Assembly: GCA_965202995.1 (NCBI GenBank)
Contig: OZ241861.1
Span: 483,299-547,298, forward strand
Direction of reading: 5' to 3'
DNA: 64,000 nt
Source: Tepidiformaceae bacterium
Lineage (GTDB): Bacteria > Chloroflexota > Dehalococcoidia > Tepidiformales > Tepidiformaceae
Below, in pieces: positions 1,721 through 54,061 of this stretch. Every line of letters begins with the position of its first letter. Position 1 is the stretch's first letter. The notes beneath the pieces were generated by a model. That model was not told where the DNA came from and did not search any database. It worked only from the letters and a program-made list of their open reading frames with translations. Both the position numbers and the translations under genes were made by a program.

Positions 1721-1725
1721 GCGTG

Positions 1726-5205: not shown

Positions 5206-5709
5206 ATGGATTCTCCAGAGATGCCATCGGAGCCTGAGCAGATTGACGCGGCCTTTGATCGTGCCGAGCGTATTGCCCTGAGCAACGAACCTTGGATGGA
5301 TGAGGTTTTGTCCGACTATGCTCACCACCTCTGCATCTTGGCGACGGGATTTCTGGAGCGAGCCGTTGTGCGGGTGTTTCAAGAGTACGTGGATGCTCAC
5401 GGAGATTCTCGGATCGGCAACTACGTGGATCAGACGTTCCAGCGTGAGGGAAGCATGCGAGCGCGAAACATCCTCAGGATCGCTGGTGAATTTGACGAAG
5501 ACTGGAAGAACCGCTTGGATAGTGAGATGACGGAAGAACACAGAATGGCGATTGGAAACCTGTACAGCCACCGAAACAACATTGCACATGGTAGGGACAG
5601 CGACCTGACCTACCGCCAAGTGCGCGACGCTTACAATTCAATCACAGAGACCATCGGTTTTCTCGAGGAGATTGTCGAGTCAACTCCTTCGCGTTATCCC
5701 CGTGCCTAG
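5206..5709 (+). CDS. small HEPN-like protein (Rx4H motif), 167 aa
   Basis: ATG 5206 directly abuts the upstream TAG (5203-5205). R-N-N-I-A-H at codons 123-128 (nt 5572-5589) within LYSHRNNIAHG matches the HEPN Rx4-6H catalytic motif. Low G+C, like the upstream gene. Confidence 0.65.
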   Translation: MDSPEMPSEPEQIDAAFDRAERIALSNEPWMDEVLSDYAHHLCILATGFLERAVVRVFQEYVDAHGDSRIGNYVDQTFQREGSMRARNILRIAGEFDEDWKNRLDSEMTEEHRMAIGNLYSHRNNIAHGRDSDLTYRQVRDAYNSITETIGFLEEIVESTPSRYPRA

Positions 5710-7601: not shown

Positions 7602-7621
7602 CCCCTCGCCAGATACAGCTA

Positions 7622-7951
7622 TCAGGTGGTGAAACGGCTCGGGTTCTCCGGCATCAGAACCTCGCCATCGTGAAGGAGCCACTTGGGGTCCGGCCTGCCC
7701 GATGCCCCCAGGCTGCCGTCCTGCCGGAGATACTGGTGGACGACGGCGACCTGCCGTCCGTTGGCGTCGAAGTACCCGACGGCCTGACTACGAGTGCAAA
7801 ACGGCTCACCGGCGCCGGGCGCGGACGGGTGTTTGTCCGTCTTGAGCTGTATAGTGAGCCTGCCAGCTTCGACCGCCTCCACGAAACGAAGCTCGTTGAA
7901 GAGCCGACGCAGACGGGCGGCGGGAACGTAGCGACGCGGAGGGCTGGCCAT
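7622..7951 (-). CDS. hypothetical protein, 109 aa, with atypical codon usage
   Basis: ORF-track 7622..7951. Many A/T-ending codons sit in an otherwise GC3-rich genome. I recognise no motif. The segment HQYLRQDGSLGASGRPDPKWL looks conserved. Confidence 0.45.
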   Translation of the reverse strand: MASPPRRYVPAARLRRLFNELRFVEAVEAGRLTIQLKTDKHPSAPGAGEPFCTRSQAVGYFDANGRQVAVVHQYLRQDGSLGASGRPDPKWLLHDGEVLMPENPSRFTT

Positions 7952-8204
7952 GCCGGAAGCGTACTCCCTTGAGGCCGTGCGGGCGCGGATTCAGCGGTGC
8001 GCCGAGGGCGACGGCAGCCCCGCCGAGCTCGACGACTGGCTCTTCCCCCTCCTCTGGCCGGACGAGGGCGACGCCGACGCGCGCGAACTCGCGTGGAGCG
8101 CCGAACTCCTGCTCATGGAGCTGGGCCGCGGACACTGGACCGAAGCGGCGTTCCGGGAGCAGCTGGCGCTGCTCATCCAGCCCCGCGCCGTCGCCGGACG
8201 CTAG
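7950..8204 (+). CDS. hypothetical protein, 84 aa
   Basis: ORF-track 7950..8204 has strong GC3 bias typical of native coding sequence. Its ATG overlaps the divergent ATG of 7622..7951 within CATG (7949-7952). Its stop shares CTAG (8201-8204) with the convergent ThuA-like gene. Confidence 0.5.
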   Translation: MPEAYSLEAVRARIQRCAEGDGSPAELDDWLFPLLWPDEGDADARELAWSAELLLMELGRGHWTEAAFREQLALLIQPRAVAGR

Positions 8205-9022
8205 CCCCGCGCCCAGGCCCGCGCGTCCTCCGACGCCACCCAGTGCAGCGCGTTGTGCAGCAGACGCCGGAAGCCCGCGTTCGCGTAGCAGTTCGGGCCG
8301 TCCCCGATCTGCATCGCCACCACCGGCGCGTTCCCGCTCTTCTTCGCCCACACCACCAGGTCGCTCCCCTCCGGATGGTCCCACTCCGCCTGCTCGGCGG
8401 CGGGCGCCAGCGGCGGCGGATTGAAGTTCTCCCGCACCATCGGGTAGTCCGTGCGCATCAGCGGCAGGATGCCCGGCTGCGTCTCGAACGCCTTCGACGT
8501 CAGGTACAGCTCGTCCTCGATCTCGAACGGCTCGACGCCCTCCAGCACGGGGTGGCCGATGGCCGCGGGATCGGGCGAGACGACGCCGCGCGGGTTGCCC
8601 CGCGGATCGTGCGCGCCGCCGCGATAGCCCGAGCCCGGCGTCGGCTCGCCGAACACCTCGCCTTGCGTGAGCAGGAACGACGTGCCGCTCACGTCGCGCC
8701 AGCCCGCCCACGCCGGCCACTGCACGATGGCGTGGTTGAGCATGACGATGCCCGTGCCGCGCTCCAGCAGCGCCGCGATGCTGCGCTGGTACTCCTCCGG
8801 CGCGGGCGCGAAGCTGGCCCCCCCGTCCGGACTCTCCGTGCCCCACATGTCGTAGAAGAGCACGGCCTCGTACGCCGCCGCGTTCTCCGGCCGCAGCATC
8901 ACCTGCGCCGCCGGCTGCTCCACCTGCGTCGTCTGCAGCTCCGGATTCTCGTCGAAGATGGCGTAGAAGCCGTTGTAGTCGAAGGGATGCCCCTTCGTCA
9001 CCACCAGCGTGTTCACGGCCAT
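8201..9022 (-). CDS. ThuA-domain (trehalose-utilisation-like) protein
   Basis: This is the C-terminal 273 codons of ORF-track 8201..9907. Start ATG 9022 (MAVNTLVVTKGHPFDYN...) has GGAAGGA at 9037..9031. The C-terminal ANAGFRRLLHNALHWV is typical of ThuA-like proteins. Confidence 0.65.
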   Translation of the reverse strand: MAVNTLVVTKGHPFDYNGFYAIFDENPELQTTQVEQPAAQVMLRPENAAAYEAVLFYDMWGTESPDGGASFAPAPEEYQRSIAALLERGTGIVMLNHAIVQWPAWAGWRDVSGTSFLLTQGEVFGEPTPGSGYRGGAHDPRGNPRGVVSPDPAAIGHPVLEGVEPFEIEDELYLTSKAFETQPGILPLMRTDYPMVRENFNPPPLAPAAEQAEWDHPEGSDLVVWAKKSGNAPVVAMQIGDGPNCYANAGFRRLLHNALHWVASEDARAWARG

Positions 9023-9036
9023 GAGTGCGCTCCTTC

Positions 9037-9855
9037 CTATCCCGCGGGGATGGCGTCGTGGGCCGCGAGGATGGCCGCGAAGCGCGCCTCCACCGCGGGC
9101 TGCGTCTCCGGATGGCTGAGCACGTACAGCTCGTTCCCCCGCACCGCGCGCACCACGCGCGCCGCCAGGTCCTCCGGCTCGATGATCTCCTGCGGCACCC
9201 CCTCGCCCTCCACGCGGTTGGGCGGCTCCGGCCCGCCGTACTCCCCGGGGCGGTTGCGCCCGGCCTCCACGATGCGCGAGCGCACGCCCCCCGGACACAC
9301 CACCGACACGCCGATGCCGTGCTCCGCCAGGTCCAGCGCCAGCGCCTCGCTCAGCCCCACCACGCCGTACTTCGCCGTCGTGTAGGAGACGATGCCCGGC
9401 GTGGCCGCGGGCACCAGCCCCGCGATCGACGCCGTGTTCACGATGTGCCCCCCCTCCCCCTGCGCCACCATGCGCGGCAGGAACGCCTGCACCCCGTGAA
9501 TCACCCCGTACAGGTCCACGCCCAGCACCCAGTCCCAGTCCGCCTCCGTCATGTCCTGCGCCAGCCGGAAGGTGACCACGCCCGCGTTGTTGCACAGCAC
9601 GTGCGCCCCCCCGAACTCCGCCCACGCCGCGTCCGCGAGCGCCTCCAGCGACGCCCGCTCCGTCACGTCGTTCTCCACCGCGATGGCGCGCATCCCCGCC
9701 GCCTCCACCGCCGCCACGGCCTCCGCCGCCATGTCCATCTCGATCTCGCCGATGACGACGTTCATGCCCTCGTTGGCGAAGGCCGCGGCCAGCGCCTTGC
9801 CGATGCCGCCGCCGCCGCCCGTGACGACCGCCGTGCGCCCGCGAAGTTCTTCCAC
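9037..9855 (-). CDS. short-chain dehydrogenase/reductase (SDR)
   Basis: This is the C-terminal part of ORF-track 9037..11607. Start GTG 9855 (VEELRGRTAVVTGGGGGIGKA) follows GGGAGG; GTG 9864 is an alternative start. TGxxxGxG and YxxxK (YTTAKYG) motifs are present. Confidence 0.8.
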   Translation of the reverse strand: MEELRGRTAVVTGGGGGIGKALAAAFANEGMNVVIGEIEMDMAAEAVAAVEAAGMRAIAVENDVTERASLEALADAAWAEFGGAHVLCNNAGVVTFRLAQDMTEADWDWVLGVDLYGVIHGVQAFLPRMVAQGEGGHIVNTASIAGLVPAATPGIVSYTTAKYGVVGLSEALALDLAEHGIGVSVVCPGGVRSRIVEAGRNRPGEYGGPEPPNRVEGEGVPQEIIEPEDLAARVVRAVRGNELYVLSHPETQPAVEARFAAILAAHDAIPAG

Positions 9856-9921
9856 GCGAACCACCTCCCGTTGGCGCGGCAGTGTAGCACGCCGCGCCCC
9901 CGCGCAAGCCCCTGCGGCGGC

Positions 9922-9927
9922 TATACT
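9922..9927 (+). promoter_or_regulatory. -10-like hexamer TATACT immediately upstream of hsdR (possible leaderless mRNA)
   Basis: TATACT at 9922-9927 and ATG at 9937, with no Shine-Dalgarno sequence between them. It is the only AT-rich hexamer in the divergent intergenic region. Confidence 0.35.
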
Positions 9928-9936
9928 GCTCCGCCC

Positions 9937-12279
9937 ATGCTCAACGAGGCCGATACCCGCGCCAAGCTGGTCGATCCCGTCCTGCGCGGGCGCGGCTGGG
10001 TGGAAGGGCTGATCAGGCGCGAGCAGACGCCCGGCCGCATCGACATCGTGGGCGCGGGCGGACGGCGCGGACGCGGGCGCTCCACCGACTACCTCCTCCA
10101 TGCCCGCGTGGACGGCAAGCGCACGCTCCCCATCGCCGTGCTGGAGGCGAAAGCCGAGGAGTACGCGCCCGACCACGGCCTCGAACAGGCGAAGCGCGAC
10201 GCGCGCCTCCACCACGTGCCCTTCGCCTTCGCCACCAACGGCCACCTGTTCGTCGAGCACGAGTTCGCCACGGGCCGCACGACCGCCCCCGCGCCGCTGA
10301 CCGAATTCCCCGGCTGGGACGACTTGCTCCGGCGCTACCTGAAGCAGCGGGAGATCGACCTCACGCGCAAGGAGGCCGCGCCGCTCCTGAAGCCCGCGCG
10401 CGCGCACGACCGCCCCTACCAGTACGCCGCCGTGCGCGCCGTGCTCGAACGCATCGCGCGCGGAGAGAAGCGCCCCCGCGCCCTGCTCTCCCTCGCCACG
10501 GGCACGGGCAAGACGCGCATCGCCGTCAGCCTGCTGCGCGCCCTGGACCGCAGCGGCCAACTCCGCCGCGCCCTCTTCGTCTGCGACCGCAAGGAGCTGC
10601 GCGATCAGGCCCTCGGCGCGCTCCACAACGAATTCAAGGCCGACGCCGCCAAGGCCACCACGCGCAACCCCGAGAAGAACGCCCGCGTCATCGTCGCCAC
10701 CTACCAGACGCTGGGCATCGACGACGAGGGCGGCGACGACTCCTACCTCTCGCGCCACTACCCGGAGAACTACTTCAGCCACATCATCATCGACGAGTGC
10801 CACCGCTCCGCCTGGGGCAAGTGGCGCGCCGTGCTCGACCGCAACCCCGACGCCGTCCACATCGGCCTCACCGCCACGCCCCGCACCTGGGAGCGCGTCG
10901 GCGATCCCGACGACATCGAGACCGAGGACGACGACGCGATCACGCGCGACAACCACCAGTACTTCGGCGAACCCGTCTACGAGTACTCCATCGCCGACGC
11001 CATGGACGACGGCTGGCTCGCCGCCATGAAGCTCGTGCGCGCCGAAATCATCACCGCCGGGCAGCGCGAGCGCGAGGAAGGCGTCAGGAGCGGCGAACTC
11101 GACCCTGATCGCATCCGCGACGCTCGCACGGGCGCGCCCGCGGGCGTCAGCGACATGCCCGAAATCTACCGGGCCGCTTCCATCGAACAGCGCCTCCGCA
11201 TCGAGGAGCGCGTCGAGGAGATGTGCCGCGACCTCTTCCAGCGCCTCCTCGAATCGGGCGGACCGCGCCAGAAGACGCTCATCTTCTGCGCCGGCGACGC
11301 CCATGCCGACCGCGTCGCCGCCGAAATGGGCAACCTCTACGCCGAATGGGCCGATCGCGCGGACGAGCGCCCCGTCGATCCCTACGCCTTCAAGTGCACC
11401 GCCCAGGGCGGGGCCGAGCTGCTCTCCGACTTCAAGGGCGCCGCCTCCCGCGCCTTCGTCGCCTGCACCGTCGACCTCATCACCACCGGCGTCGACGTGC
11501 CCCGCCTCCAGAACGTCGTCTGGTTCCGCTACCTCAAGTCCCCCATCCTCTTCCACCAGATGCTGGGACGCGCCACCCGCATCCACGCCGAAAGCGGCAA
11601 GCTCCACTTCACCGCCTACGACTACACCAACGCCAGCCGCCTGCTCGACGCATCCCTCGCGCAGCGCCCCGAGACCGAGCGCGAACGCAAGCCCGACGGC
11701 GAGCGCGAGGAGCGCGACCCGCCCCGCATCTTCGAGGCCGAGGGCGTCGAGGTCCGCATCGAGCCCGAGGGCGTGGTTGTCATGGTTCCCGAAGGCGGTA
11801 CACTGCGCCGCGTGACGCTCGACGACTACCGCGCCGGCATCGCCGAACGCATCCTCGCCGAAGCGGCCGGCATCGACGCCTTCCGCGAACGCTGGATCGC
11901 GCCCGAGGAACGCCGCGCCATGCTCGATAGCCTGCCGCAGGGCTCGGCCAGCGCCGACATCCTGCGCGCCGCCAGCGACATCGACGAGGGCTGCGACGGC
12001 TACGACGTGCTCGCCAGCGCCGCCTTCGGCGAGACGCCCCGCCCGCGCCTCGAACGCGCCGACCGCTTCGAGGAGACGGAGGAGCGCGGCATCCTGCGCG
12101 CCATCGCCCGCCAGTTCGGCTACGGCGGCACGGACGCCCTCGAAAGCAGCGGCCTCTTCCAGACCCCGGGTGTGCGAGCGGCGGGCGGCCTCGCCGCGCT
12201 CGAACCGGAAGCCGCGAACCGCTTGCTCGACCTGAAGCGCCGCGTGCTCGCCACCGACGCGGAGTGGCGCGACGCATGA
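9937..12279 (+). CDS. hsdR: type I restriction enzyme R subunit (EcoEI-like C-terminal domain)
   Basis: ATG 9937 is in frame with ORF-track 9025..12279. N-terminus MLNEADTRAKLVDPVL. Helicase motifs SLATGTGKT, IIIDECHR and LTATP are present, and the C-terminus is EcoEI_R_C-like. Confidence 0.9.
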   Translation: MLNEADTRAKLVDPVLRGRGWVEGLIRREQTPGRIDIVGAGGRRGRGRSTDYLLHARVDGKRTLPIAVLEAKAEEYAPDHGLEQAKRDARLHHVPFAFATNGHLFVEHEFATGRTTAPAPLTEFPGWDDLLRRYLKQREIDLTRKEAAPLLKPARAHDRPYQYAAVRAVLERIARGEKRPRALLSLATGTGKTRIAVSLLRALDRSGQLRRALFVCDRKELRDQALGALHNEFKADAAKATTRNPEKNARVIVATYQTLGIDDEGGDDSYLSRHYPENYFSHIIIDECHRSAWGKWRAVLDRNPDAVHIGLTATPRTWERVGDPDDIETEDDDAITRDNHQYFGEPVYEYSIADAMDDGWLAAMKLVRAEIITAGQREREEGVRSGELDPDRIRDARTGAPAGVSDMPEIYRAASIEQRLRIEERVEEMCRDLFQRLLESGGPRQKTLIFCAGDAHADRVAAEMGNLYAEWADRADERPVDPYAFKCTAQGGAELLSDFKGAASRAFVACTVDLITTGVDVPRLQNVVWFRYLKSPILFHQMLGRATRIHAESGKLHFTAYDYTNASRLLDASLAQRPETERERKPDGEREERDPPRIFEAEGVEVRIEPEGVVVMVPEGGTLRRVTLDDYRAGIAERILAEAAGIDAFRERWIAPEERRAMLDSLPQGSASADILRAASDIDEGCDGYDVLASAAFGETPRPRLERADRFEETEERGILRAIARQFGYGGTDALESSGLFQTPGVRAAGGLAALEPEAANRLLDLKRRVLATDAEWRDA

Positions 12280-12887
12280 ACCCGGGCGACCCGCTCCCCG
12301 ACGGCTGGCGCTGGACCACGCTGGGGGAGTGCTGTGTTCAGGAACGAAAAGCGATCACCAGCGATAGACCCGAGTATACGGAGATGCCTTACCTGGGGCT
12401 GGAACATATTGAAGGAAGCACCGGGAGGATTCTGGTCAGCGAAAAGGCGGCGCGCGGATCTGAATCCACGAGCAACAACTTTTGCTTCACTCCTGAACAC
12501 GTTCTCTACGGGAAACTCCGTCCGTACCTCAACAAGGTGGCCCTGCCCGATTTTTCGGGGCGTTGCAGCACGGAGATTATCCCGCTCCGCCCTGTCGATA
12601 TGGACCGCGGCTTTCTGGCATGGTTCCTTCGCAGGAGCGATACGGTTGAGTACGCCATGCGGGGCAAGACTGGTTCACGAATGCCTCGCGCATCCATGAA
12701 GGAACTCCTGCTGCTCCCCATCCCCCTGCCGCCGCTGGCCGAGCAGCGCCGCATCGTGGCCGCGCTCGAAACGCGACTCGCCGCCGCAGAGCGCGCCCGC
12801 CACGCTGCCCTCTCCCAGCTCAATGCGCTGGAGGCGATGCCAGCCGCCCTGCTGAGGAAAGTGTTTGAACGCGAGGCCAAAATCTGA
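12276..12887 (+). CDS. hsdS: type I R-M specificity subunit, proximal half (TRD1 plus central conserved region), ending at an in-frame TGA
   Basis: ATG 12276 overlaps the hsdR stop (ATGA). PDGWRWTTLGE ... LPIPLPPLAEQRRIVAALE ... is the typical HsdS TRD and conserved helix. Stop TGA 12885-12887. Confidence 0.85.
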   Translation: MNPGDPLPDGWRWTTLGECCVQERKAITSDRPEYTEMPYLGLEHIEGSTGRILVSEKAARGSESTSNNFCFTPEHVLYGKLRPYLNKVALPDFSGRCSTEIIPLRPVDMDRGFLAWFLRRSDTVEYAMRGKTGSRMPRASMKELLLLPIPLPPLAEQRRIVAALETRLAAAERARHAALSQLNALEAMPAALLRKVFEREAKI

Positions 12888-12901
12888 TTTTGGCCTCGCG
12901 T
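12869..12901. other. perfect 15-bp inverted repeat (3-nt loop) containing the hsdS-interrupting stop codon
   Basis: acgcgaggccaaaat / ctg / attttggcctcgcgt. TGA 12885-12887 spans the loop and the first stem base. It is followed by the tandem 9-mers tcgaaattt x2 (12901-12918) and a T-rich stretch. Confidence 0.85.
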
Positions 12902-13001
12902 CGAAATTTTCGAAATTTGTCGTGTTTTCACCGGTGGTCCCGCTCCACAAGGCAATCAGTACTTTGGGGCGTCCGGTCCGCTCTTCTTTCGCGTTCGGGA
13001 C

Positions 13002-13487
13002 TTGTCGGTGAGTGGTCGGACCACAGCGCTGGCAACAGCCCGTGATCGACTCTCCCCGTCTGCGTTGGATACGCTCAAACTGGTTCCCGTCCAGCCGAAC
13101 ACACTGGTCTTCCCGAAGAGCGGAGCCGCAATTGCCACGAATAACCGAGCCCTCACCACAGTGCCCGGATACTTGGTCAGTCACCTCATGGCGCTTGAAG
13201 CCGGAGATTCAGTCCTGCCACTCTGGCTGTACTATGCATTCTGCACACTGGACATGACCGATTTCTCGGATAATACAGGGTACCCAAGCCTCCGCAAAAC
13301 AACGGTCGAGAGGATTCAAATCCCTCTCCCGCCCATCGACGAACAGCGCGCGATCATCACCGAACTCGAACGGGAAATGGCGGCCACGGAGCAGGCGCGT
13401 ACGGCGGCGCGCGAGCGGCTGGCGCTTGCCGAAGCGCTGCCGGGTGCTATCCTGCGGCGCGCTTTCGCGCCCGGAGCCTCCGCATGA
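13002..13487 (+). CDS. hsdS: type I R-M specificity subunit, distal half (TRD2 plus C-terminal conserved region); possibly an untranslated pseudogene fragment
   Basis: ORF-track 13002..13487 (TTG start). The same frame is open from 12888, directly after the TGA, and reads FWPRVEIFEICRVFTGGPAPQGNQYFGASGPLFFRVRDL, a typical TRD start. IQIPLPPIDEQRAIITELE forms the distal conserved helix. The stop overlaps the hsdM ATG. Confidence 0.7.
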   Translation: MSVSGRTTALATARDRLSPSALDTLKLVPVQPNTLVFPKSGAAIATNNRALTTVPGYLVSHLMALEAGDSVLPLWLYYAFCTLDMTDFSDNTGYPSLRKTTVERIQIPLPPIDEQRAIITELEREMAATEQARTAARERLALAEALPGAILRRAFAPGASA

Positions 13488-15022
13488 CCTCGGCCATCGC
13501 CTCCCAGTCCTCGCTCGACGCGCGCATCAAGACCGTGTGCGACGTGCTGCGCCGCTCGAACTGCGCTGGCGCGCTCCAGTACGTGCCGGAGCTGACGTGG
13601 CTGCTTTTCCTGCGCTTCCTCGACGAGCGCGAGGAACGGGAGGCGCGGGACGCGGCGGCGCTGGGGCGGCGGTACGAGGCATCGATCCAGGAGCCCTTCC
13701 GCTGGCGCGACTGGGCCGCGCCCGACGGCGTGAAGCGCAACCTGCTGCAGCATGGGGCGGGGAACTCCGTTTTCGCGTTTCTCGAGGGCGACCTGCTGCC
13801 GTACCTCCACGAGCTGGGGAACAACGGGGGCACGCCCCGCCAGCGGCTCATCGGCCAGATTCTCTCCAGCGTGGACGGCACGCGCGTGGACACGGAGCGC
13901 AACTTCTACGACGTGGTGGACCTCGTGCACGAGATTCGGTCGGGCGAGATGGACGACCAGCACCTGTTCCCGCTGTCGGGGGCCTACGAGGGCCTGCTGC
14001 TCTCGATGGGGGAGAAGAACAACGACGGCGGGCAGTTCTTCACGCCGCGCGAGGTGGTGCGGGCGATGGTGCGCGTGGTCGCCCCGACGGTGGGCGAGAC
14101 GGTGTTCGACCCGTGCTGCGGGACGGGCGGCTTCCTGGCGCAGGCCTTCGAGCACATGCGCGCGAACCTGCCCCCGGAGGCGACGGGCGAGGCGCTGGAG
14201 CGGCTGAGCGGCGAGACGTTCTACGGCACGGAGAAGGACACCCTCGTCTACCCGATCGCGCTGGCCAACCTCGTGCTCCACGGCATCGACGAGCCGCACA
14301 TCCAGCACGCCAACACGCTCACGCGCGCGGAGGAGTACGGCGGGCTCTTCGAGGACGCGCCGGACCAGTTCGACGTGATCCTCACGAATCCCCCGTTCGG
14401 CGGCAAGGAGGGCGCGGACGCGCAGAACCACTTCGACTACCCGACGTCCTCGACGCAGGTGCTCTTCCTGCAGGAGGTGATCGAGAGCCTGAAGCGGGGC
14501 GGGCGCGCGGGCTTCGTGGTGGACGAGGGCCTGCTCTTCCGCACGAGCGAGCGGGCCTTCGTGCAGACGAAGCGCAAGCTGCTGGACGAGTGCGACCTGT
14601 ACTGCGTGGTGAGCCTCGCGCCGGGCGTGTTCACCTCGGCCGGTTCGGGCGTGAAGAGCAACCTGCTGTTCTTCAACAAGGGGCAGCCGACGGAGCGCAT
14701 CTGGTACTACGAACTGTTCCCGCCGGAGTGGACCGACCGGAAGGGGCAGACGCGGCCGGGCACGCGCTTCACCAAGAAGTACCCGCTGACGCTGGCGCAC
14801 TTCGAGGAGTTCTTCGCGCTGCTGCCGGAGCGGGCCGATTCGGAGCGCTCGTGGACGGTGACGCGGGAGCAGGTGGAGGCGAACGGCTACGACCTGAAGG
14901 CGGTCAACCCGCACCGCCCGGACGACTCGGACACGCGCACGCCGGAGGAGCTGCTGGCGGAGATCGCGGGCCACGGGCGGGAGCTGGAGTCGGCGCTCGC
15001 GGAGCTGCGGTCGGCCTTGTAG
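13484..15022 (+). CDS. hsdM: type I R-M N6-adenine DNA methyltransferase subunit
   Basis: ORF-track 13484..15022. It has an ATGA overlap with hsdS. Motifs FDPCCGTGGFL (SAM binding) and NPPFGG (catalytic) are present. Confidence 0.92.
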   Translation: MTSAIASQSSLDARIKTVCDVLRRSNCAGALQYVPELTWLLFLRFLDEREEREARDAAALGRRYEASIQEPFRWRDWAAPDGVKRNLLQHGAGNSVFAFLEGDLLPYLHELGNNGGTPRQRLIGQILSSVDGTRVDTERNFYDVVDLVHEIRSGEMDDQHLFPLSGAYEGLLLSMGEKNNDGGQFFTPREVVRAMVRVVAPTVGETVFDPCCGTGGFLAQAFEHMRANLPPEATGEALERLSGETFYGTEKDTLVYPIALANLVLHGIDEPHIQHANTLTRAEEYGGLFEDAPDQFDVILTNPPFGGKEGADAQNHFDYPTSSTQVLFLQEVIESLKRGGRAGFVVDEGLLFRTSERAFVQTKRKLLDECDLYCVVSLAPGVFTSAGSGVKSNLLFFNKGQPTERIWYYELFPPEWTDRKGQTRPGTRFTKKYPLTLAHFEEFFALLPERADSERSWTVTREQVEANGYDLKAVNPHRPDDSDTRTPEELLAEIAGHGRELESALAELRSAL

Positions 15023-43203: not shown

Positions 43204-43821
43204 ATGGTCGCGTTCGACACGCTCAAGGCCTCCCAGCGGCTGCGGAAAGCGGGGTTCCCCGAGGATCAGGCGAACGCGCTCGTCTCGGCCTTCGCCGAGG
43301 ACATCGGCGCGAACCTCGCCACGAAAGACGACATCGCCCTCCTGCGCAAGGACTTCGACGTCCTCCGGCACGACTTCGACGTCCTCCGCCACGACGTCGC
43401 CAGCGACATCGAGTCGCTCAGGGAGAGCATGGAACGGGAGAACGCGGCGCTGCGGAAGGACTTCGCCAACGAGATGGCGGCCTTGCGGAAGGACTTCACC
43501 AATCAGATGGCGGCGCAGCAGGGCGAACTCGCCAACGCGATGGCGGCCTTGCGGAAGGACTTCGCCAACCAGATGGCGGCGCAGCAGAGCGAACTCGCCA
43601 GCCAGACGGGGGCGCTCCGCACGGACGTCGCCAACCAGGTGGCGGCGCAGCAGCGCGAACTCGCCAATCAGACGGCGGCGCTGCGGAAGGACTTCGCCAG
43701 CGAGCGGGAACTCCTCCGGAAGGAGATCAGCCTGCGCATCGCGCTGGGCTTCACCGGCGCCACGACGCTGATCCTGGCCGCCATCGGCGCGGCCACCGGC
43801 ATCATCGTCGCGCTTACCTGA
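43204..43821 (+). CDS. DUF1640-like coiled-coil protein with internal 22-aa repeats and a C-terminal TM anchor
   Basis: ORF-track 43204..43821. The N-terminus FDTLKASQRLRKAGFPEDQANALVSAF resembles DUF1640. AALRKDFANQMAAQQ.ELA repeats and the C-terminal helix GATTLILAAIGAATGIIVAL are present. Confidence 0.65.
   Translation: MVAFDTLKASQRLRKAGFPEDQANALVSAFAEDIGANLATKDDIALLRKDFDVLRHDFDVLRHDVASDIESLRESMERENAALRKDFANEMAALRKDFTNQMAAQQGELANAMAALRKDFANQMAAQQSELASQTGALRTDVANQVAAQQRELANQTAALRKDFASERELLRKEISLRIALGFTGATTLILAAIGAATGIIVALT
43351..43392. repeat. 21-bp tandem duplication (gacttcgacgtcctccgNcac x2)
   Basis: 43351-43371 and 43372-43392 differ at one position and encode DFDVLRH DFDVLRH. Confidence 0.85.
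43444..43704. repeat. 66-bp (22-codon) tandem repeats, about 3.5 units plus a leading half unit
   Basis: Units start at 43444 (half unit), 43477, 43543, 43609 and 43675. Units 43477 and 43543 are near-identical. Confidence 0.85.
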
Positions 43822-47696: not shown

Positions 47697-47900
47697 CTAG
47701 GCCGCGCGCGCCAGCTTCTGGCGGAGACGGTCGATGCGCAGTTCCTCGTCCGCGATCTCGCGGGCGAGCGCCTCCTCGGCGCGGATGGCGTCCCACTCCC
47801 CGCGGAACCGCCATTCCGGCGAATTCAGCAGCAGCGAGCGCTCCAGAAGGACCGACCGGGCCAGTTCGTGCTCGAACACGGTTTCACCTCCGGCGAGCAT
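47697..47900 (-). CDS. possible small protein, 67 aa, downstream of the riboswitch candidate
   Basis: ATG 47900 is in frame with ORF-track 47697..48209. It has high GC3 and a helical, charged sequence (EEALAREIADEELRIDRLRQKLARAA). It is the only minus-strand ORF between the aptamer and dnaX. Confidence 0.35.
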   Translation of the reverse strand: MLAGGETVFEHELARSVLLERSLLLNSPEWRFRGEWDAIRAEEALAREIADEELRIDRLRQKLARAA

Positions 47901-48040
47901 CGGCGGCGGCGTCCCCGCCACGGGAACGGCACCGGGCGTCGTCGTCGGGGCCGCTGGCCGTCTCGGGACGGTTCGGGTCCGGGCGTTCGCGTGCGAACCG
48001 GAGCGAAGCGGTCGAGAGACCCCCACGATTGAGGTCCCTC

Positions 48041-48152
48041 CCACGCCTGCGAGGTTAGCTGACGGGCTGCGACCGGAGGTGTCGCCCGCGGATGCGGTTC
48101 GCCCCGATGTGGCGGTTCCCCCGCTCCCCCGAAGGGGATTCGGCGGCAGCGG
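48041..48152 (-). promoter_or_regulatory. candidate c-di-AMP riboswitch (ydaO/kimA class)
   Basis: The minus-strand RNA reads CGCCGAAUCC (48145..48136), CCCC-UUCG-GGGG hairpin (48137..48126), AGCGGGGGAACC (48125..48114), UCGGGGCGAACC (48107..48096), GGGCGAC, and GUCAGCUAACCUCGCAGGCG (48063..48044). These match, in order, the blocks I recall from Bacillus subtilis ydaO: CGCUUAAUC, hairpin, AGCGGGGGACCC, UUGGGGUGAAUCC, GGGCGA, GUCAGCUAACCUCGUAAGCG. Confidence 0.6.
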
Positions 48153-48211
48153 ATGCTGCCCCCACCACCGTGCCCGCCCCCGCGTTAACGCGCAAGCGCG
48201 GGGCGCCACGC

Positions 48212-50914
48212 CTACTCAAGCAGCTCCCCCGCGATCACTCCTATCCAGATCTTCTCGCCCGTTTCCACGAGGTACTGCCCGGTCTCGATGCGAGCGACGG
48301 GATACGTCGGAAGCGGGCGCACCACCACGCATCCCCCGTCGAGCCCACTGGCATGGACAGGGGAATGGAAATCGCGGTTCTCGAATCCGTGTGGCTGCGA
48401 TTCCACGGAAAGCTCCTCCACGTCGATGGGATAGACATGGAGGAAGAAAGTGGGGACATCCACGGAAAAATCACAAGCATTATTACTCACATAGATAATA
48501 TCCTGATCCAAAAGATACACATCCCAGCCGGAGTTAGTCAGAACGGAGTTTCCCAGTGCATCCAGGAAGTCCCTGCTGATCTCCGCAGGGTTACGATCCG
48601 AAAGAAAGATCACTCCCCTCCATATCTTCTCACTCGTTTCCAAATGGTATCGCCCTGTCTCGATGAGAGCGACAGGATACGTCGGAAGTGAACGCACGAC
48701 TACGCATCCATCGTCGAGCGCATCGGCATAGAAAGGGGAATGGAAATCGCGGTTCTCGAATCCGTGTGGTTGCGACTCCGCAGGAAGATCTTCTCTATCG
48801 ACAGGATGGATATGGAGGAAAAAGGGATGGGTATCCACGGAGAATTCGCAGGTGTCATCAGAAACATAGATAATGTCTTGATCCGAAAGGTACACATCCC
48901 ATCCGGAATTGCTCAGAACCGGGAGGCCCAGTGTGTCCAGGAAATCCCTGCTGATCTCTGTGGATCTACGTTCTCTGGCAAAATCGATGGCACCATACCA
49001 AATTCTGTCATCACCTGAGAATTGTCCTGTCACAATCCGGGAAAAGGGATACCGAGGCAGTGGATGAAGAGCAACACACGTCCCTTCAAGATTGACAGAA
49101 TTTTCCGAGAAAAAGAAGCTTTGATTCTCAAACTTCGCTCCCTGCGATTCCAAGGGAAGATCGTCGATGGTGGAGGGAAAGATGTGAACAAAGAAGGTAG
49201 GGCGTGTTTCTTCGCAGTTGTCGGTAACATAGAGAAGCGAATCGTCGGAGCGATACACTTCGTATTCCTTTCTCTCCAGAGTGGGATATCCTAAATGATC
49301 CAGTATCTCGGGAAATGTTTCTGCTGTATTGTGATAAAGATCGATTAACACTTGGGAATCATGCACCAAATAGAGTGTAATATCCCCGGTCACTTTTGCG
49401 TCATAAAGGATGTTGGTATTTCCTTGAATATTAGCAAGTTTTTCAAGCAAAACGATATCATTCACTTCTGCATTAAAGAATGCGATCCAAAGACGCCTGC
49501 TTTCTCGTAAATCGAGCAGGTCATCCAGACATGATTTCTTGTTGCACACTCTGTAGTATTTCGGGATATCTCCTCCGTAGTGTATTTTTATAAAAGGCAT
49601 CCCTCCTATGAAAGGACCCGGTTCTCCTTCTGTCCAGAAAATGATATCCCCTTCTTCTCGCCATTCTTCGACACTGGCGATGGCAACTTCAAATGACAGG
49701 GGTTCCGAAAATAATCCATCTTCATTCGTGATAGAAAGTACGCCAATGAATCCTATGACAAGCACTGATCCAGAACATATTATAGCCCTGATGGAAATTT
49801 TCAAGGAACCAGTTAGATTGGTAAGCAATTCCGAAGCTACCGGGATACACTGGGAAAATGCCACTATGATGACTGGTCCCCATAAGGTGGAATGTCGGTT
49901 GGCGCCAATGGGGTATTCCTGAAATATCGCGGCACTCAATGCAATAACCATACTGATCAGGAACAGGATTGTGAGTTCGCTTCTTCTTCTAATATGCTTG
50001 CCAAGAGCGAAAAGGGCAATACTGAATCCAATCAGGGCAAAAAATGGAATGATTTCAACATGGTATCCAAGAATTTCTCTGAATTTATCGTAGCTGAATT
50101 GAACAATTTCTCCCACGTTTGTCAATCTTCCCTGATAGTAATCATCCTGAAGATAACCATCACGCGCCCATCCAGCCCTCCATCCATCAGTATGGTACTG
50201 CAGAGTGCTGAACCATGCCGTAACGCTCCCCGCCGACAGCGCCAACACCGGCGCTATCGAGAACGAGACCGTATCCCTAATCCCAGCCATCCACTTCCCC
50301 CTTCCCCAGCCTGTATCGAGGCCCCGCTTCATGACGATCATCAGCACCATCGCCACGCCGAGCAACACCAAGCCATATTGCAGAAGCGGACCGACAAACA
50401 GCGTTACTGGTAGCAGCCATCGCTTTTCCCCTTTCAGGTACCACAGCGCCCCGGCTAGCATGATCACCACCAGCAGCGCGTCTATCGAATACTCCCGCAC
50501 ATCCCGTGCCTCATGAATCGCGGCCACGGACACCGCCATGAGAACACCAGCGGGGAAGGCCACCGACCGTCTGACCCCGGCCAGGGGGAGCAACACCACG
50601 AGCGCGGCCACCGTGAGCGTGCTCGCCACCGCCGGCGCCAGCCGGATGCTGAGACGGGATACTTCAATCTTCTGGATGAGCCACAGGCCAATCGGCCAGA
50701 GGATCGGCGACGAATTCTGGGTACGCGTGTTCTCGATGAGCTCCCCGAACGACCCTTGTGCATTGAGAGATGCAATCGCTTCATCAGCACGGAGACCATC
50801 GGAAGGAAGGGCATAGAACCGCGGCACGGCAGCGGCAACGACCAGAACCACGCATGCGACATAGTACAGCGTCGATTCCCTGGGCCACCGCAGCCCCCGG
50901 AGCCGTTCCCACAT
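48212..50914 (-). CDS. ArnT/PMT-like (GT39/GT83-type) membrane glycosyltransferase fused to a large C-terminal region with three tandem repeats of about 125 aa
   Basis: ATG 50914 (MWERLRGLRWPRESTLYYV...) is in frame with ORF-track 48212..51001, giving 900 aa. The N-terminal part is a polytopic membrane region with the pattern RADEAI...SSPILWPIGLW...RLAPAVASTL, typical of PMT_2/ArnT. The last 369 aa are three repeats. Confidence 0.75.
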   Translation of the reverse strand: MWERLRGLRWPRESTLYYVACVVLVVAAAVPRFYALPSDGLRADEAIASLNAQGSFGELIENTRTQNSSPILWPIGLWLIQKIEVSRLSIRLAPAVASTLTVAALVVLLPLAGVRRSVAFPAGVLMAVSVAAIHEARDVREYSIDALLVVIMLAGALWYLKGEKRWLLPVTLFVGPLLQYGLVLLGVAMVLMIVMKRGLDTGWGRGKWMAGIRDTVSFSIAPVLALSAGSVTAWFSTLQYHTDGWRAGWARDGYLQDDYYQGRLTNVGEIVQFSYDKFREILGYHVEIIPFFALIGFSIALFALGKHIRRRSELTILFLISMVIALSAAIFQEYPIGANRHSTLWGPVIIVAFSQCIPVASELLTNLTGSLKISIRAIICSGSVLVIGFIGVLSITNEDGLFSEPLSFEVAIASVEEWREEGDIIFWTEGEPGPFIGGMPFIKIHYGGDIPKYYRVCNKKSCLDDLLDLRESRRLWIAFFNAEVNDIVLLEKLANIQGNTNILYDAKVTGDITLYLVHDSQVLIDLYHNTAETFPEILDHLGYPTLERKEYEVYRSDDSLLYVTDNCEETRPTFFVHIFPSTIDDLPLESQGAKFENQSFFFSENSVNLEGTCVALHPLPRYPFSRIVTGQFSGDDRIWYGAIDFARERRSTEISRDFLDTLGLPVLSNSGWDVYLSDQDIIYVSDDTCEFSVDTHPFFLHIHPVDREDLPAESQPHGFENRDFHSPFYADALDDGCVVVRSLPTYPVALIETGRYHLETSEKIWRGVIFLSDRNPAEISRDFLDALGNSVLTNSGWDVYLLDQDIIYVSNNACDFSVDVPTFFLHVYPIDVEELSVESQPHGFENRDFHSPVHASGLDGGCVVVRPLPTYPVARIETGQYLVETGEKIWIGVIAGELLE
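48215..49321. repeat. three tandem coding repeats (about 369, 375 and 363 nt) encoding an unrecognised domain
   Basis: The repeat units are 48215-48583, 48584-48958 and 48959-49321. The first two share long identical runs, e.g. the 36-nt aggggaatggaaatcgcggttctcgaatccgtgtgg at 48359-48394 and 48734-48769 (offset 375). The third unit is recognisable only at protein level. Confidence 0.85.
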
Positions 50915-50954
50915 GAACGCGCACAGGCTACAGGCCTCGCCCCCGCGACGCAAC

Positions 50955-52490
50955 TCAGCGCACGCGCAGGATGACGCCGTCGGGGAGCTCCGCCACCGCA
51001 TCCAGCGCGGACGACGCCTGCAGTTCGGCGGGGCCGTAGCCGTAGTTGGCGTTCGCGGGCCAGTCGCGGAACCAGACGACCCAGGCGCCGGGCCGTGCGC
51101 CGTCGAGCGCCCGCTCCACGCGGTCGCGCGCCTCCGGCAGGCGCTGGTAGCGGTTCGCGGGGCCGAGGGCGATGTACAGCAGGTCGTGACGGTTGGAGAG
51201 GAACTCCGCGCCCCGCGGCTCGCCGAACCATTCCACCGTGGGGAAATCGCCCCGCCAGTCCGCGCTCCAGTCGGGCAGCAGCGCGACGAGGTCGTCCCGC
51301 GCGATGGCGTGCGCGGTGAGCCCCGCGTTCCCCAGCGTCCAGAGCGCGAGCGCGCCCGCGACGGCGATGGCGGCGGCGCGGACCGGAAGCGCGTGCGCCC
51401 CGCGCCGCCAGAGCCGGTCCGCCGCCAGCGTCAGCAGGAAGATCGCGGGAACGATGCAGGGGAGCAGCTGCCGCGAGAAGCTGTCCGTCCCGGACAGGGT
51501 CGCCAGCGTGAAGAGGTAGCAGGCGGTGAACACGGCCACGAAGACGCTCGCCGTCACCAGGCTCGCGCGCGCCCGCCCGCTTTCCGCCACGCGCCAGCCC
51601 GCCGCCGCGACCGCGAGCGCACCGGCCGCCAGCAGCGCGAGCGCCGCCGCCTCCGTCATGGCGCCGGGCGTCCCCCCCGACGGCGGGACGAGGAAGATCC
51701 AGTCCGCGGCGACGTCGATCATGCCGTCCCGAATCTGGCTCGCGGACAGGCCCGAGGGCGAACGCGCGCCCCCGAGGCTCCCCGTGAGCGAGAGATTGCG
51801 CAGCATCCAGAGCGCAAGGGGAATCGCCGCCAGCGCCGCCCAGACGGCCACGCGCCGCACGCGCTCCGGCAGGGGGGCGTCGCGCCGGAACAGGAGCAGC
51901 GGCGCGACGGCCAGCGCCAGTGCGACGCCCATGAAGCGCGCGAGGCAGGCGAGAGCCGCGAACAGCGCCGCCCACGCGAACGCCGCTCGCCCGCCGCCGT
52001 TCAGGTGCACCGCCGTGAGCATGAGCGCGAGCAGCGTGAGCAGGATGAAGAGCGGCTCGGACATGGCGAGCGCGGAGATGTTGGCCAGCGGGATGGCGAG
52101 GGCCGCGGCCAGACAGCCCAGCGCGACGAACGGGCGCGCCACGCCGCACCAGCGCAGCCACCAGCCGAGCGCGACGACGGTCAGGCCGAGACAGGCGGCG
52201 TTGAGCGGCCCCGCCACCGCGTGGGGATCGACGACGAAGAAGCCCGCCGCCGCCAGCAGCATCGGAAAGAGCGGCGGGAACGACACGTAGCTCCGGTCGA
52301 GGAAGCCCGCGAACCCGTCCCCGTCCGCCAGCCGCCGCGCCACGCCGATGTAGTTGACGGCGTCGCCGTGGAAGACGCCGCCGTGAACGGCCTCCCGCAG
52401 CAACGCGAGCGCCACGCCCAGCAGGGCGATGCCGAGCACGAGCAGCGCGAAGCGGTCGGGGCGGGGGAACGTCAGCGCGCCGTCTCCCAC
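50955..52490 (-). CDS. ArnT/PMT-like membrane glycosyltransferase (second copy, native GC)
   Basis: GTG 52490 is in frame with ORF-track 50955..52835; the start is uncertain. It is polytopic, with GDAVNYIGVARRLADGDGF...FPPLFPMLLAA typical of the PMT_2 family. It overlaps the upstream methyltransferase gene by 19 nt. Confidence 0.7.
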   Translation of the reverse strand: MGDGALTFPRPDRFALLVLGIALLGVALALLREAVHGGVFHGDAVNYIGVARRLADGDGFAGFLDRSYVSFPPLFPMLLAAAGFFVVDPHAVAGPLNAACLGLTVVALGWWLRWCGVARPFVALGCLAAALAIPLANISALAMSEPLFILLTLLALMLTAVHLNGGGRAAFAWAALFAALACLARFMGVALALAVAPLLLFRRDAPLPERVRRVAVWAALAAIPLALWMLRNLSLTGSLGGARSPSGLSASQIRDGMIDVAADWIFLVPPSGGTPGAMTEAAALALLAAGALAVAAAGWRVAESGRARASLVTASVFVAVFTACYLFTLATLSGTDSFSRQLLPCIVPAIFLLTLAADRLWRRGAHALPVRAAAIAVAGALALWTLGNAGLTAHAIARDDLVALLPDWSADWRGDFPTVEWFGEPRGAEFLSNRHDLLYIALGPANRYQRLPEARDRVERALDGARPGAWVVWFRDWPANANYGYGPAELQASSALDAVAELPDGVILRVR

Positions 52491-53329
52491 GTGATCAGCA
52501 GCCCCCGCAGCGTCGGGCGCCACGCCGGACGCCAGCGCCCGTCCGCATCGCGCGCGAACAGCTCGTCGAGGCGCGCGACGATACGCTCCTCCGCGCCCGG
52601 CGCGTCCTCCGCCTCCGCCTCGGCCAGCGCGAAGGCGACCGCCTCGTCCGCGGTCGCGGGCAGGGGACCGCGTTCGGGCCAGTCGAACGGCTCCGGCAGG
52701 AGGAGCACCTCCGGCAGCAGCCCCATGTCCCACAGCACGACCAGCAGCTCGCGGTGGCCGGGCCCGCACGCCTGCTCCACCCCGAAGGCGGCCTCGAAGA
52801 GGCGGGCGTTGCGCGCGGGCGGCGTCGGACTCCACACGTGGACGACGGCGCGGCGCGCGGCGGCGCGGTCGAGTTTATGCAGGAACGCCTCGATCTCGCG
52901 CACGAAGTAGACGACGTCGACGCTGACGGCGACGTCGCCCTCGACCTCCGCGTCGAGCCAGGCTTCGGGCGCGAGCGCGGCGTTGCCGATGCCCGCCTCC
53001 CGCATCAGCTCGAGGAAGGCCTCGCCCATGCCGGGCGCGGGCTCGACGTTCGTGAGCGCGCGGCAGCGCAAGGCCAGCGGCAGCCCGATGCGTCCCGCGC
53101 CGCCGCCCACGTCGATCACGTGGTCGTCCGCGCGCACGAACCCGGCCAGCCGCGCGAGGTTCGGATCGAGCGGACGGCGCGGGTCGAAGCGGTAGGAGGG
53201 AGCGTTGCGGCTCCAGCGGGCCGAATCGAGCGCGTCCAGCCCCAGCTCGCGCCGCTGCGCGTCGACCGCATCGACCAGCTCGCGGTAGCGCTCGGCCGCC
53301 GTCATCGCGCGCACAGGATAGCCCGCCAT
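52472..53329 (-). CDS. class I SAM-dependent methyltransferase
   Basis: ORF-track 52472..53329. SAM motif I is VIDVGGGAGRIGLPLA. ATG 53305 is an alternative start. Confidence 0.75.
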   Translation of the reverse strand: MAGYPVRAMTAAERYRELVDAVDAQRRELGLDALDSARWSRNAPSYRFDPRRPLDPNLARLAGFVRADDHVIDVGGGAGRIGLPLALRCRALTNVEPAPGMGEAFLELMREAGIGNAALAPEAWLDAEVEGDVAVSVDVVYFVREIEAFLHKLDRAAARRAVVHVWSPTPPARNARLFEAAFGVEQACGPGHRELLVVLWDMGLLPEVLLLPEPFDWPERGPLPATADEAVAFALAEAEAEDAPGAEERIVARLDELFARDADGRWRPAWRPTLRGLLITWETAR

Positions 53330-53347: not shown

Positions 53348-54061
53348 TCACGGATCGCGCGCGGGCCGCGCGCGCAACAGGGCGTAGGCGAGCGCCCCCA
53401 GCACGGCCCCCACGATGGGCCCGACCCAGTAGACCCAGTGCGCGGTCCATTCGCCGCTCGCGAGGGCTGGGCCGAACGAGCGCGCGGGATTCATGGAGGC
53501 GTTGGCGATCGGCCCCCAGCCGATGGCGGCGAGCCCCACCCAGGCGCCGACGGCCACGCCCGCGAACGCCCCCTGCGCGCGCTCGTCCGTGGCCACGCCG
53601 AAGACGATGAGCGCGAGGAAGAAGGTGAGCGCGATCTCGGAGAGCAGGGCCGCGTCCACGCCGCCGATGCGCGGGACCGTGGCCCCGGCGTCGCCCGCCT
53701 CCCCGACGATGGCCGCGATGGCCAGCCCCGCGAGCGCTCCGCCCGCCAGCTGCGACGCCGCGTAGGCGAGCGCGCGCGCCGCGCCGATGCGCCCCGTGAC
53801 GAGGAAGGCGACGGTGACGGCGGGGTTGACGTGCGCGCCGGAGACGTGGCCGAGGGCGAGGATGACGGCCGTCACCGCGAGGCCGAAGGCGAGGCCCACG
53901 CCCACGCCCGTGACCGCGCCGCCGCTGGCCGCGTCCACCGCCATCGCGCCCGCGCCCGCGAACACCAGCGCGAAGGTCCCCAGCGCCTCCGCGAGGCAGC
54001 TGGCCAGCGCGCCGCGCCGGTCCGCCAGCCACGCGCGGTCGGCCCCCAGCGGGTCAGGCAT
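53348..54061 (-). CDS. MIP-family channel (aquaporin/glycerol facilitator)
   Basis: ORF-track 53348..54061. Two NPA boxes are present (SGAHVNPAVT and NASMNPARSFGP). Confidence 0.9.
   Translation of the reverse strand: MPDPLGADRAWLADRRGALASCLAEALGTFALVFAGAGAMAVDAASGGAVTGVGVGLAFGLAVTAVILALGHVSGAHVNPAVTVAFLVTGRIGAARALAYAASQLAGGALAGLAIAAIVGEAGDAGATVPRIGGVDAALLSEIALTFFLALIVFGVATDERAQGAFAGVAVGAWVGLAAIGWGPIANASMNPARSFGPALASGEWTAHWVYWVGPIVGAVLGALAYALLRARPARDP

Follow-up and report, generated by a model that had tools for sequence, protein, structure and literature searches.

In a 64,000-nucleotide stretch of contig OZ241861.1 from a Tepidiformaceae bacterium, called the window throughout, we found a reverse-strand gene that encodes a 900-aa glycosyltransferase of the GT-C fold (glycosyltransferase fold C) and ends in three tandem copies of a domain that falls outside the described domain families. 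With moderate confidence we propose that these repeats form a non-catalytic arm, which binds or positions a glycan or envelope acceptor and sits on a horizontally acquired enzyme. Cell envelopes are built and decorated by GT-C enzymes, whose targets for glycosylation are decided by their extracytoplasmic accessory domains. Here, a known enzyme class carries a new kind of accessory repeat, whose family is sizeable, uncurated and, as it seems, restricted to a niche. The parts of the gene are the following, with residue numbers that refer to the 900-aa form.

48212..50914 (-): GT-C-fold glycosyltransferase gene with C-terminal repeats, 900 aa; stop codon at 48212-48214
49724..50914 (-): membrane module with 11 predicted transmembrane helices (TM1 to TM11) and GT-C fold, aa 1-397
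50780..50785 (-): candidate catalytic acidic pair D44-E45 in the first outside loop, from conservation and the helix map
49334..49723 (-): alpha/beta domain, extracytoplasmic, aa 398-527, from the last helix to R1
49333-48959 (-): repeat R1, membrane-proximal and divergent, aa 528-652
48958-48584 (-): repeat R2, aa 653-777
48583-48215 (-): repeat R3, C-terminal, aa 778-900

The enclosing open reading frame (ORF) is longer, reaching from 48212 to 51001 (-) with 929 aa when counted from its first ATG in the ORF list. The ATG at 50914 (M30 of the 929-aa ORF) is the start in the database form of the protein (P0274, 900 aa), and the alignment with the orthologue from a close relative, L001, begins at the equivalent methionine. 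The stop codon of the upstream gene at 50955-50957 lies 40 nt ahead of this ATG. Because a start at 51001 would create an overlap with the upstream gene, we disfavour it.

Repeat structure and fold

The last ~370 residues of the protein are made up of three head-to-tail units of ~121 aa. In pairwise BLASTP comparisons R2 and R3 share 73.5% protein identity (E 5e-65; 79% in DNA), and R1 is 40% identical to R2 (E 6e-24) and 39% identical to R3 (E 2e-27). These similarities far exceed chance and the three-repeat structure is real. A family hidden Markov model (HMM), run over the six-frame translation of the 64-kb window, returned exactly three domains, all of them in the ORF of the 900-aa gene. 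A preliminary description of this DNA had given a repeat consensus and a span of 48215-49321 that were essentially right; the non-repeat segment ahead of R1, which it had put at ~200 aa, is actually about 130 aa long (aa 398-527). R1 departs from the family at D21, where it has E, and at D54, where it has T. It fits a pattern seen in the family, where the membrane-proximal repeat usually diverges most: of the 138 proteins with at least three repeats, 88 have their lowest score in the first one. At the other end of the array, the domain in R3 stops 6 residues short of the protein C-terminus.

The repeats of the 900-aa protein gave no match in Pfam-A (2025) or NCBIfam (June 2026) at E values up to 1, including the curated profiles of PMT-type MIR, carbohydrate-binding, Ig-like and FN3 families, and no Pfam match fell on the repeats of further family members either (8 + 52 proteins, with limits of E <= 0.01 and <= 0.001). 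When a profile of 61 domain sequences was compared with the chains in the PDB, zero sequence matches were obtained at E <= 10. A 14-3-3 protein, which came up at E 0.026 with the full-length profile, was dismissed as noise.

The AlphaFold2 model of R2, computed on the 61-sequence alignment, has a mean predicted local distance difference test (pLDDT) of 90.1 and a predicted TM-score (pTM) of 0.82. It shows a beta-sandwich of some eight strands, accompanied by two short helices. Foldseek found nothing for this model in the PDB at E <= 0.001 (best E 0.045) and no significant match among the viral structures of BFVD (best E 0.023). With Pfam-A, NCBIfam, the PDB profile and both Foldseek searches returning no match, the repeat stands outside the described domain families, just as the preliminary description had supposed. 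We also considered that it might be a very divergent member of the known Ig-like, FnIII or carbohydrate-binding module (CBM) superfamilies, whose link was missed by the libraries used. The nearest fold matches are indeed sandwiches of a generic kind, namely the accessory domain of the Amuc_1438 glycopeptidase, FnIII domains of cytokine receptors and Big_2-CBM56, and the likeness is weak (TM-scores 0.39-0.45, probability up to 0.98, E 0.05-0.2; query TM-scores of 0.41-0.45 for the PDB matches of best probability). But the curated libraries, the PDB profile search and the fold searches against PDB and BFVD all ended without a significant match, and we judge such a hidden membership very unlikely.

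Across the domain, C37, P52, C85 and W113 are invariant. Near-invariant are D21, Y23, Y31, F46, F47, H49, D54, L58, G66, F67, N69, F72, L91, P92, Y94, I99, T101, G102 and Q103, a set rich in aromatic and polar residues. At least two cysteines are present in 701 of 731 domain instances, and a disulfide between C37 and C85 probably stabilises the domain. Because only C, P, C and W are invariant, we regard the repeat as non-catalytic, and the abundance of aromatic and polar residues in the near-invariant set counts in the same direction.

Membrane module, topology and related systems

The full-length AlphaFold2 model, based on 24 homologues, reaches a pLDDT of 77, with values of mostly 80-95 in the membrane part. 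Its top Foldseek matches are all GT-C enzymes (probability 1.0, E 2e-6 to 1e-3): ALG12 (9s6t), ArnT (5f15/5ezm), STT3A (6s7o), AftA (8if8), DPY19 (7zli), Pmt4 (9i5k), PglB (3rce), AglB (3wak) and EmbA/B/C (7bvh, 7bvf, 6x0o). The catalytic acidic motif of GT-C enzymes such as PMT and ArnT sits after TM1. In our protein the D44-E45 pair follows 10 residues past TM1; among the 24 homologues D44 never varies, and the conservation of E45 is at least 90%. By comparison with PMT and ArnT, we infer that D44/E45 is the candidate catalytic centre. This bears out the ArnT/PMT-like N-terminal glycosyltransferase noticed before, whose fold is GT-C (ArnT/PMT/STT3-like) and whose D-E pair past TM1 is invariant. 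The Pfam-A scan of the 900-aa protein gave no PMT_2 (PF13231) match and a weak GtrII match below threshold. Because its Pfam matches stay below threshold, we assigned the protein to the GT-C fold alone, and to neither GT39 nor GT83.

In our topology model with 11 helices, the N-terminus is inside and the C-terminus outside, and each K/R-rich loop faces the cytoplasm. The cytoplasmic loops hold 11 K+R in 35 residues, versus 11 in 132 residues for the outside loops, and the C-terminal 503 residues, which lie outside, are acidic (87 D+E versus 35 K+R). We rejected a topology with 10 helices, in which the K/R-rich loops RRRS and KRGLDTGWGRGK would face outside. The structurally matched GT-C enzymes that possess a C-terminal soluble domain all carry it extracytoplasmically. 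Four independent lines, i.e. the positive-inside rule, the homology of the GT-C fold, the invariant Cys pair and the existence of signal-anchored relatives, show that the repeats lie outside the cytoplasm. The preliminary description had expected this location and had named a cytoplasmic placement as an argument against its proposal; the four lines together remove this main objection.

Several known systems share parts of this architecture. ArnT (GT83) is a fold match of our protein, through 5f15/5ezm, with E 3e-6 to 7e-6 and a target TM-score of 0.50. The alpha/beta domain of our protein, in which helices and strands alternate in the model, follows the last helix in a position comparable to the periplasmic domain of ArnT. 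For the PMT/PMT_2 enzymes (GT39), the fold matches are to Pmt4 and Pmt1-2, and an acidic pair is likewise found after TM1. The 900-aa protein differs from ArnT and PMT in that it stays below the Pfam gathering score for PMT, and PMTs have beta-trefoil MIR domains in a loop, in contrast to the C-terminal beta-sandwich repeats seen here.

The mycobacterial enzymes EmbA, EmbB and EmbC (GT-C; CAZy GT53) resemble our protein in that a GT-C module is followed by extracytoplasmic C-terminal modules of the beta-sandwich type. Their CBM-like C-terminal modules hold the glycan acceptor, the growing arabinan. However, the repeat matches the C-terminal domains of Emb neither in sequence nor, to a significant degree, in fold, the array here is a tandem of one ~120-aa unit in variable copy number, and the membrane module is much smaller, with about 400 aa and 11 helices. 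An analogous combination of a GT-C module with a C-terminal extracytoplasmic or lumenal repeat array is also present in TMTC1-4 and in bacterial proteins with PMT_2 and tetratricopeptide repeats (TPR). Those arrays are thought to select the acceptor. The difference is that the repeats there are alpha-helical TPRs, whereas here they are beta-sandwiches with a conserved Cys pair.

Family, distribution and proposed function

A word-indexed search with the three repeats yielded six short proteins only, and a follow-on search with nine sequences yielded 195 proteins. The exhaustive HMMER search of 1.84 billion cluster representatives at 50% identity gave 2,296 proteins at E <= 1e-3, of which 1,790 remained at E <= 1e-10. 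With ~2,300 clusters at 50% identity, this is a large domain family without a curated model or a solved structure, for which an entry among the domain families and a structure are warranted at the least. In the 295 family proteins that we analysed, the copy number ranges from 1 to 10 with a median period of 121 aa, and the repeats are C-terminal in every case, with no hydrophobic helix after them. A polytopic N-terminal region is present in 108 of these proteins (median 8 helices by a crude count), with the first repeat near aa 535. A further 27 carry a single N-terminal hydrophobic segment ahead of the repeats, which in 19 of them lies within the first 120 aa, and several of these single-segment proteins resemble classical signal peptide carriers.

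Among the 52 proteins scanned for Pfam partners N-terminal to the repeats, PMT_2 was detected in 13 and PMT in 6; PMT_2 or PMT matches in other repeat-bearing proteins reach E 3e-11. Additional partners are Wzy_C (O-antigen ligase) in P0125, a protein with ten repeats, SGNH domains of the GDSL/AlgX type and an arylsulfotransferase. The recognised partners all act outside the cytoplasm, with glycoconjugates of the envelope or the extracellular space as substrates, and many other N-terminal partners have no Pfam match at all. This survey, which had been proposed together with the preliminary description, hence finds the repeat on GT-C enzymes, on envelope enzymes of other kinds and by itself. 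Gene-calling artefacts probably account for many of the short stand-alone domain proteins in the databases, because callers truncate or split genes of atypical composition. A 785-aa ORF of L001 was called merely as its last 138 aa (P0001; L001 8125-8541), and at 6512-8477 of the locus L002 a 456-aa gene is followed by a 158-aa gene where the cluster mate is one protein of 535 aa.

Two side observations concern the family. Four repeat-bearing proteins match Pfam Subtilosin_A (PF11420) with E down to 3e-11, possibly an artefact of hydrophobic or low-complexity sequence. At another locus (L128, 3285-9884) three consecutive genes for proteins of 806, 715 and 627 aa carry one C-terminal repeat each and are tandem paralogues; it lies in a 2.69-Mb contig of a metagenome-assembled genome (MAG), from the same metagenome assembly as L002 (ERZ19489113).

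Because the domain is always found C-terminal to envelope-glycan enzymes (PMT_2, PMT, Wzy_C, SGNH, arylsulfotransferase), we link the repeat to glycans. In L002 (Latescibacteria) and in L129, another MAG, the gene for the GT-C protein with repeats comes directly after genes for a GT2 enzyme and a PF03706 flippase-like protein, and ahead of one for an FAD amine-oxidase-like protein. Such an arrangement of three components is Gtr-like, and its GT2 and flippase-like members support, as context, both the glycan link and the use of a polyprenyl-phosphate donor. By analogy with the GT-C superfamily, the enzyme would work at the outer face of the cytoplasmic membrane, where it would move a sugar from a polyprenyl-phosphate-linked donor to an envelope acceptor, with the D44-E45 pair in the first outside loop as the putative catalytic centre. 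Past the alpha/beta domain, the three beta-sandwich repeats would reach away from the membrane as an arm that may bind the acceptor polymer of the glycan or envelope, or bring it into position, and the repeat copy number could set the reach or the avidity. Functionally, the CBM-like C-terminal modules of the Emb enzymes are the nearest analogy for such an arm. Both the type of donor and the ligand-binding role of the repeats are suggested by such analogies.

Some results weigh against this proposal. No carbohydrate-binding module matches the repeat significantly in structure; its likeness is to generic Ig/FnIII-like sandwiches only. The membrane module scores 16.1 bits with Pfam PMT (PF02366) versus a gathering score of 22.7. 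The parity of the 11-helix topology depends on the TM5/TM6 hairpin, which has a short helix. Finally, no GT2 or flippase gene is present among the genes examined around the repeat-bearing gene in the window.

The highly variable copy number (1-10 in the family, 2 versus 3 between close relatives), the regular period of ~121 aa and a fold that resembles tandem FnIII/Ig arrays could all be understood if the repeats were a passive spacer, a ruler or an anchor in the wall or S-layer, i.e. rigid beads without substrate recognition that keep the catalytic or the alpha/beta part at a fixed distance or tether the enzyme. However, the catalytic module is embedded in the membrane and the repeats lie farther out, so they cannot space this module from the membrane. 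Moreover, a block of polar and aromatic residues with the motifs FFLHxxPxDxxDLP, GF(D/E)NxDF and TGQ is kept across phyla at 30-40% identity, which exceeds what a spacer needs, and we hold a purely passive role to be rather unlikely.

For the distribution of the domain we scanned one genome per species from 185,579 species with a degenerate DNA pattern for FFLHxxPxDxxDLP, which covers part of the family. At least 120 loci matched, and 119 of the 120 matches listed hold true domain copies; the Alkalitalea locus was a chance match to the pattern. All 119 true loci among the matches listed are MAGs from the ENA, most of them at chromosome level and from about ten phyla (accession prefixes OY282, OY729/OY730, OZ24, OZ25, CBD, CATQ and CAYGAY). 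The taxa in this list are Dehalococcoidia, other Chloroflexota, Caldilineaceae, Latescibacteria, Binatia, Entotheonella, the acidobacterial Bryobacterales, Vicinamibacterales and Ca. Marinacidobacterium, and further Nitrospirales, Gemmatimonadota, Spirochaetia, Gamma- and Alphaproteobacteria and Acidimicrobiia. Many genomes hold many loci, with at least nine on the Dehalococcoidia chromosome OZ251484.1. Together these taxa represent the signature community of high-microbial-abundance marine sponges, in a distribution that may be biased by the scan order. MAG sets of such kind are described in the data notes of the Sanger Aquatic Symbiosis Genomics project (PMC12648040), the Aldehydirespiratoraceae include a sponge-symbiotic lineage (PMC11706023), and OY282360, a record from the OY282 accession block, carries the label 'sponge metagenome' (PMC12239599). 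Among 241 million JGI metagenome records, the FFLHxxPxDxxDLP pattern turned up no true copy, as its 5 matches were all false.

Such a distribution raises the question of whether the repeats are an adhesin or lectin of sponge symbionts, which binds glycans or proteins of the sponge matrix instead of the envelope polymer of the bacterium itself and is shared by horizontal transfer within the holobiont. The confinement of the true loci among the matches listed to MAGs of sponge-symbiont-type taxa, the label of OY282360 and the absence of a true copy from the JGI records would fit this idea, as would the signal-anchored repeat-only proteins, the arylsulfotransferase among the partners, and the foreign GC (guanine plus cytosine) content and allele replacement described below, which agree with horizontal transfer. 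Most full-length members, however, are fused to enzymes that work on the cell's own envelope glycans, and the distribution carries the possible bias of scan order just mentioned. We therefore consider an adhesin unlikely.

A broader thought, which we put forward only tentatively, is that the repeat defines a niche-specific gene family of the marine sponge holobiont, exchanged horizontally among at least ten phyla on several kinds of envelope-glycan enzymes and on secreted proteins, in which an extracytoplasmic lectin-like module tailors or presents surface glycans for life with the host. In this way symbionts might, for instance, escape phagocytosis or attach to sulfated matrix. The family is apparently concentrated in sponge-associated bacteria of many phyla and bears clear signs of horizontal exchange. 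If the repeat is a true glycan-recognition module, it would offer a new handle on surface remodelling by uncultured symbionts and a candidate marker of host adaptation.

Horizontal exchange and genomic surroundings

Over 48300-50200 the GC content falls to 38-55% within a background of 72-78%, and the GC content at third codon positions (GC3) of the repeat-bearing gene is 0.56, versus 0.92-0.97 for its neighbours. Two genes lie upstream of it on the same strand.

50955..52490 (-): polytopic membrane protein, 511 aa, probable second glycosyltransferase, with native high GC
52472..53329 (-): putative class I S-adenosylmethionine (SAM)-dependent methyltransferase, 285 aa

The close relative L001, an independent assembly (Logan SRR17504028), has the order CoA-transferase, a variable slot, methyltransferase, polytopic protein, the low-GC gene for the GT-C protein with repeats, a small ORF, and then dnaX, ybaB, recR and recO, which is the same order as in the window. 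Between the window and L001, the flanking genes show 94-99% protein identity with 0.10-0.14 synonymous substitutions per site (dS); the methyltransferase, at the same position, is 94% and the upstream 511-aa protein 88% identical. The gene for the GT-C protein with repeats shares only 63% protein identity with its L001 counterpart, at a dS of 0.44-2.1, and its most divergent segment is the alpha/beta domain (38% aa identity, dS ~2.1). The ratio of nonsynonymous to synonymous substitution (dN/dS) is ~0.2-0.35 in every segment, showing that the gene is functional and under purifying selection. Because dS is far above that of the flanking genes, the two alleles must be much older than the two genomes, and the slot has therefore been refilled by recombination or horizontal transfer. 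The gene is hence a cassette of foreign composition, acquired horizontally and often exchanged, with a replaced allele, while the chromosomal region around it is otherwise conserved.

The L001 allele has two repeats instead of three, so that one of R2 and R3 is an extra, lineage-specific copy in the window allele; the nucleotide identity to the last repeat of L001 is 81% for R3 versus 78% for R2. L001 additionally contains, at 1454-3793, a second low-GC paralogue with a GT-C module and two repeats (779 aa, 42% identical), whose slot corresponds to 53348-54061 of the window, where a high-GC MIP-channel gene stands. The combination of membrane module and repeats also crosses phyla, with identities of 37-41% (31-45% when all such loci are counted); its carriers are Latescibacteria, Gammaproteobacteria/Pseudomonadales, Dehalococcoidia and a MAG of the Acidobacteria. 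Low GC as a general trait of the family was rejected, as the median difference in GC between domain and flank is -0.017; the strong contrast is limited to a minority of loci, the lineage of the window included.

A compositional contrast as extreme as that in the window could also come from an assembly chimera or from a decaying pseudogene, in which the repeats would have no current function, and the fact that the gene caller cut the L001 orthologue to its last 138 aa may seem to point the same way. Yet the same gene with the same flanks is present in the independent assembly L001, the frame of 900 codons is open, and the low dN/dS extends over every segment, which makes both explanations highly improbable.

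Concerning the neighbours, the preliminary description had read the upstream genes as a second ArnT-like gene and a SAM methyltransferase, which together with the repeat-bearing gene would form a cassette for the modification of envelope glycoconjugates. The 511-aa protein is indeed polytopic and matches the LA_3751/LA_3752 putative glycosyltransferase family of NCBIfam (E 3e-6, below the cut-off), but it has no Pfam match. We rejected it as a paralogue of the repeat-bearing gene, since BLAST found no similarity between the two. The 285-aa protein matches several Pfam methyltransferase families with E values of 0.004-0.014, but all under the gathering score. These two are the only functionally related neighbours in the window. 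A glycoconjugate cassette stays plausible, with weak support. In the Gtr systems, a flippase (GtrA), a GT2 enzyme (GtrB) and a transferase of the GT-C type (GtrC) act together. The layout in L002 and L129 and the weak GtrII match are reminiscent of these systems, whereas the gene in the window adjoins the polytopic protein and the putative methyltransferase and not a GT2 or flippase gene.

A scan for promoters and terminators around the repeat-bearing gene gave nothing informative. Since the window is without any tRNA, no tRNA marks an island boundary, and no integrase turned up among the ORFs scanned, although no search was aimed at integrases. Downstream, 57 nt after the stop of the glycosyltransferase gene, we located a cyclic di-AMP (c-di-AMP) riboswitch at 48029-48155 (-) (Rfam RF00379, 71 bits, E 3e-15), and 129 nt past the riboswitch, just upstream of dnaX, a conserved 66-aa ORF without Pfam match at 47700-47900 (-). 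A 170-aa ORF that overlaps the riboswitch is thus probably spurious.

Farther away, the window contains a second low-GC island (~50% GC) at 4057-5709 (+) and 9025-12279 (+), near the R subunit gene of a type I restriction system. Its products are a GmrSD_N (DUF262) protein and a RiboL-PSP HEPN protein, likely an acquired defence pair. A GmrSD_N gene is likewise found near the gene for the GT-C protein with repeats at the locus L130. From the type I restriction R gene to the next high-GC gene, the GC content is reduced to 58-65% (12300-13500). Finally, at 43204-43821 (+) a 205-aa protein has internal repeats with a periodicity of ~11 aa (ALRKDFANQMAAQQ...) and a C-terminal hydrophobic helix, and it gives a CCDC90-like Pfam match with E 5e-9.

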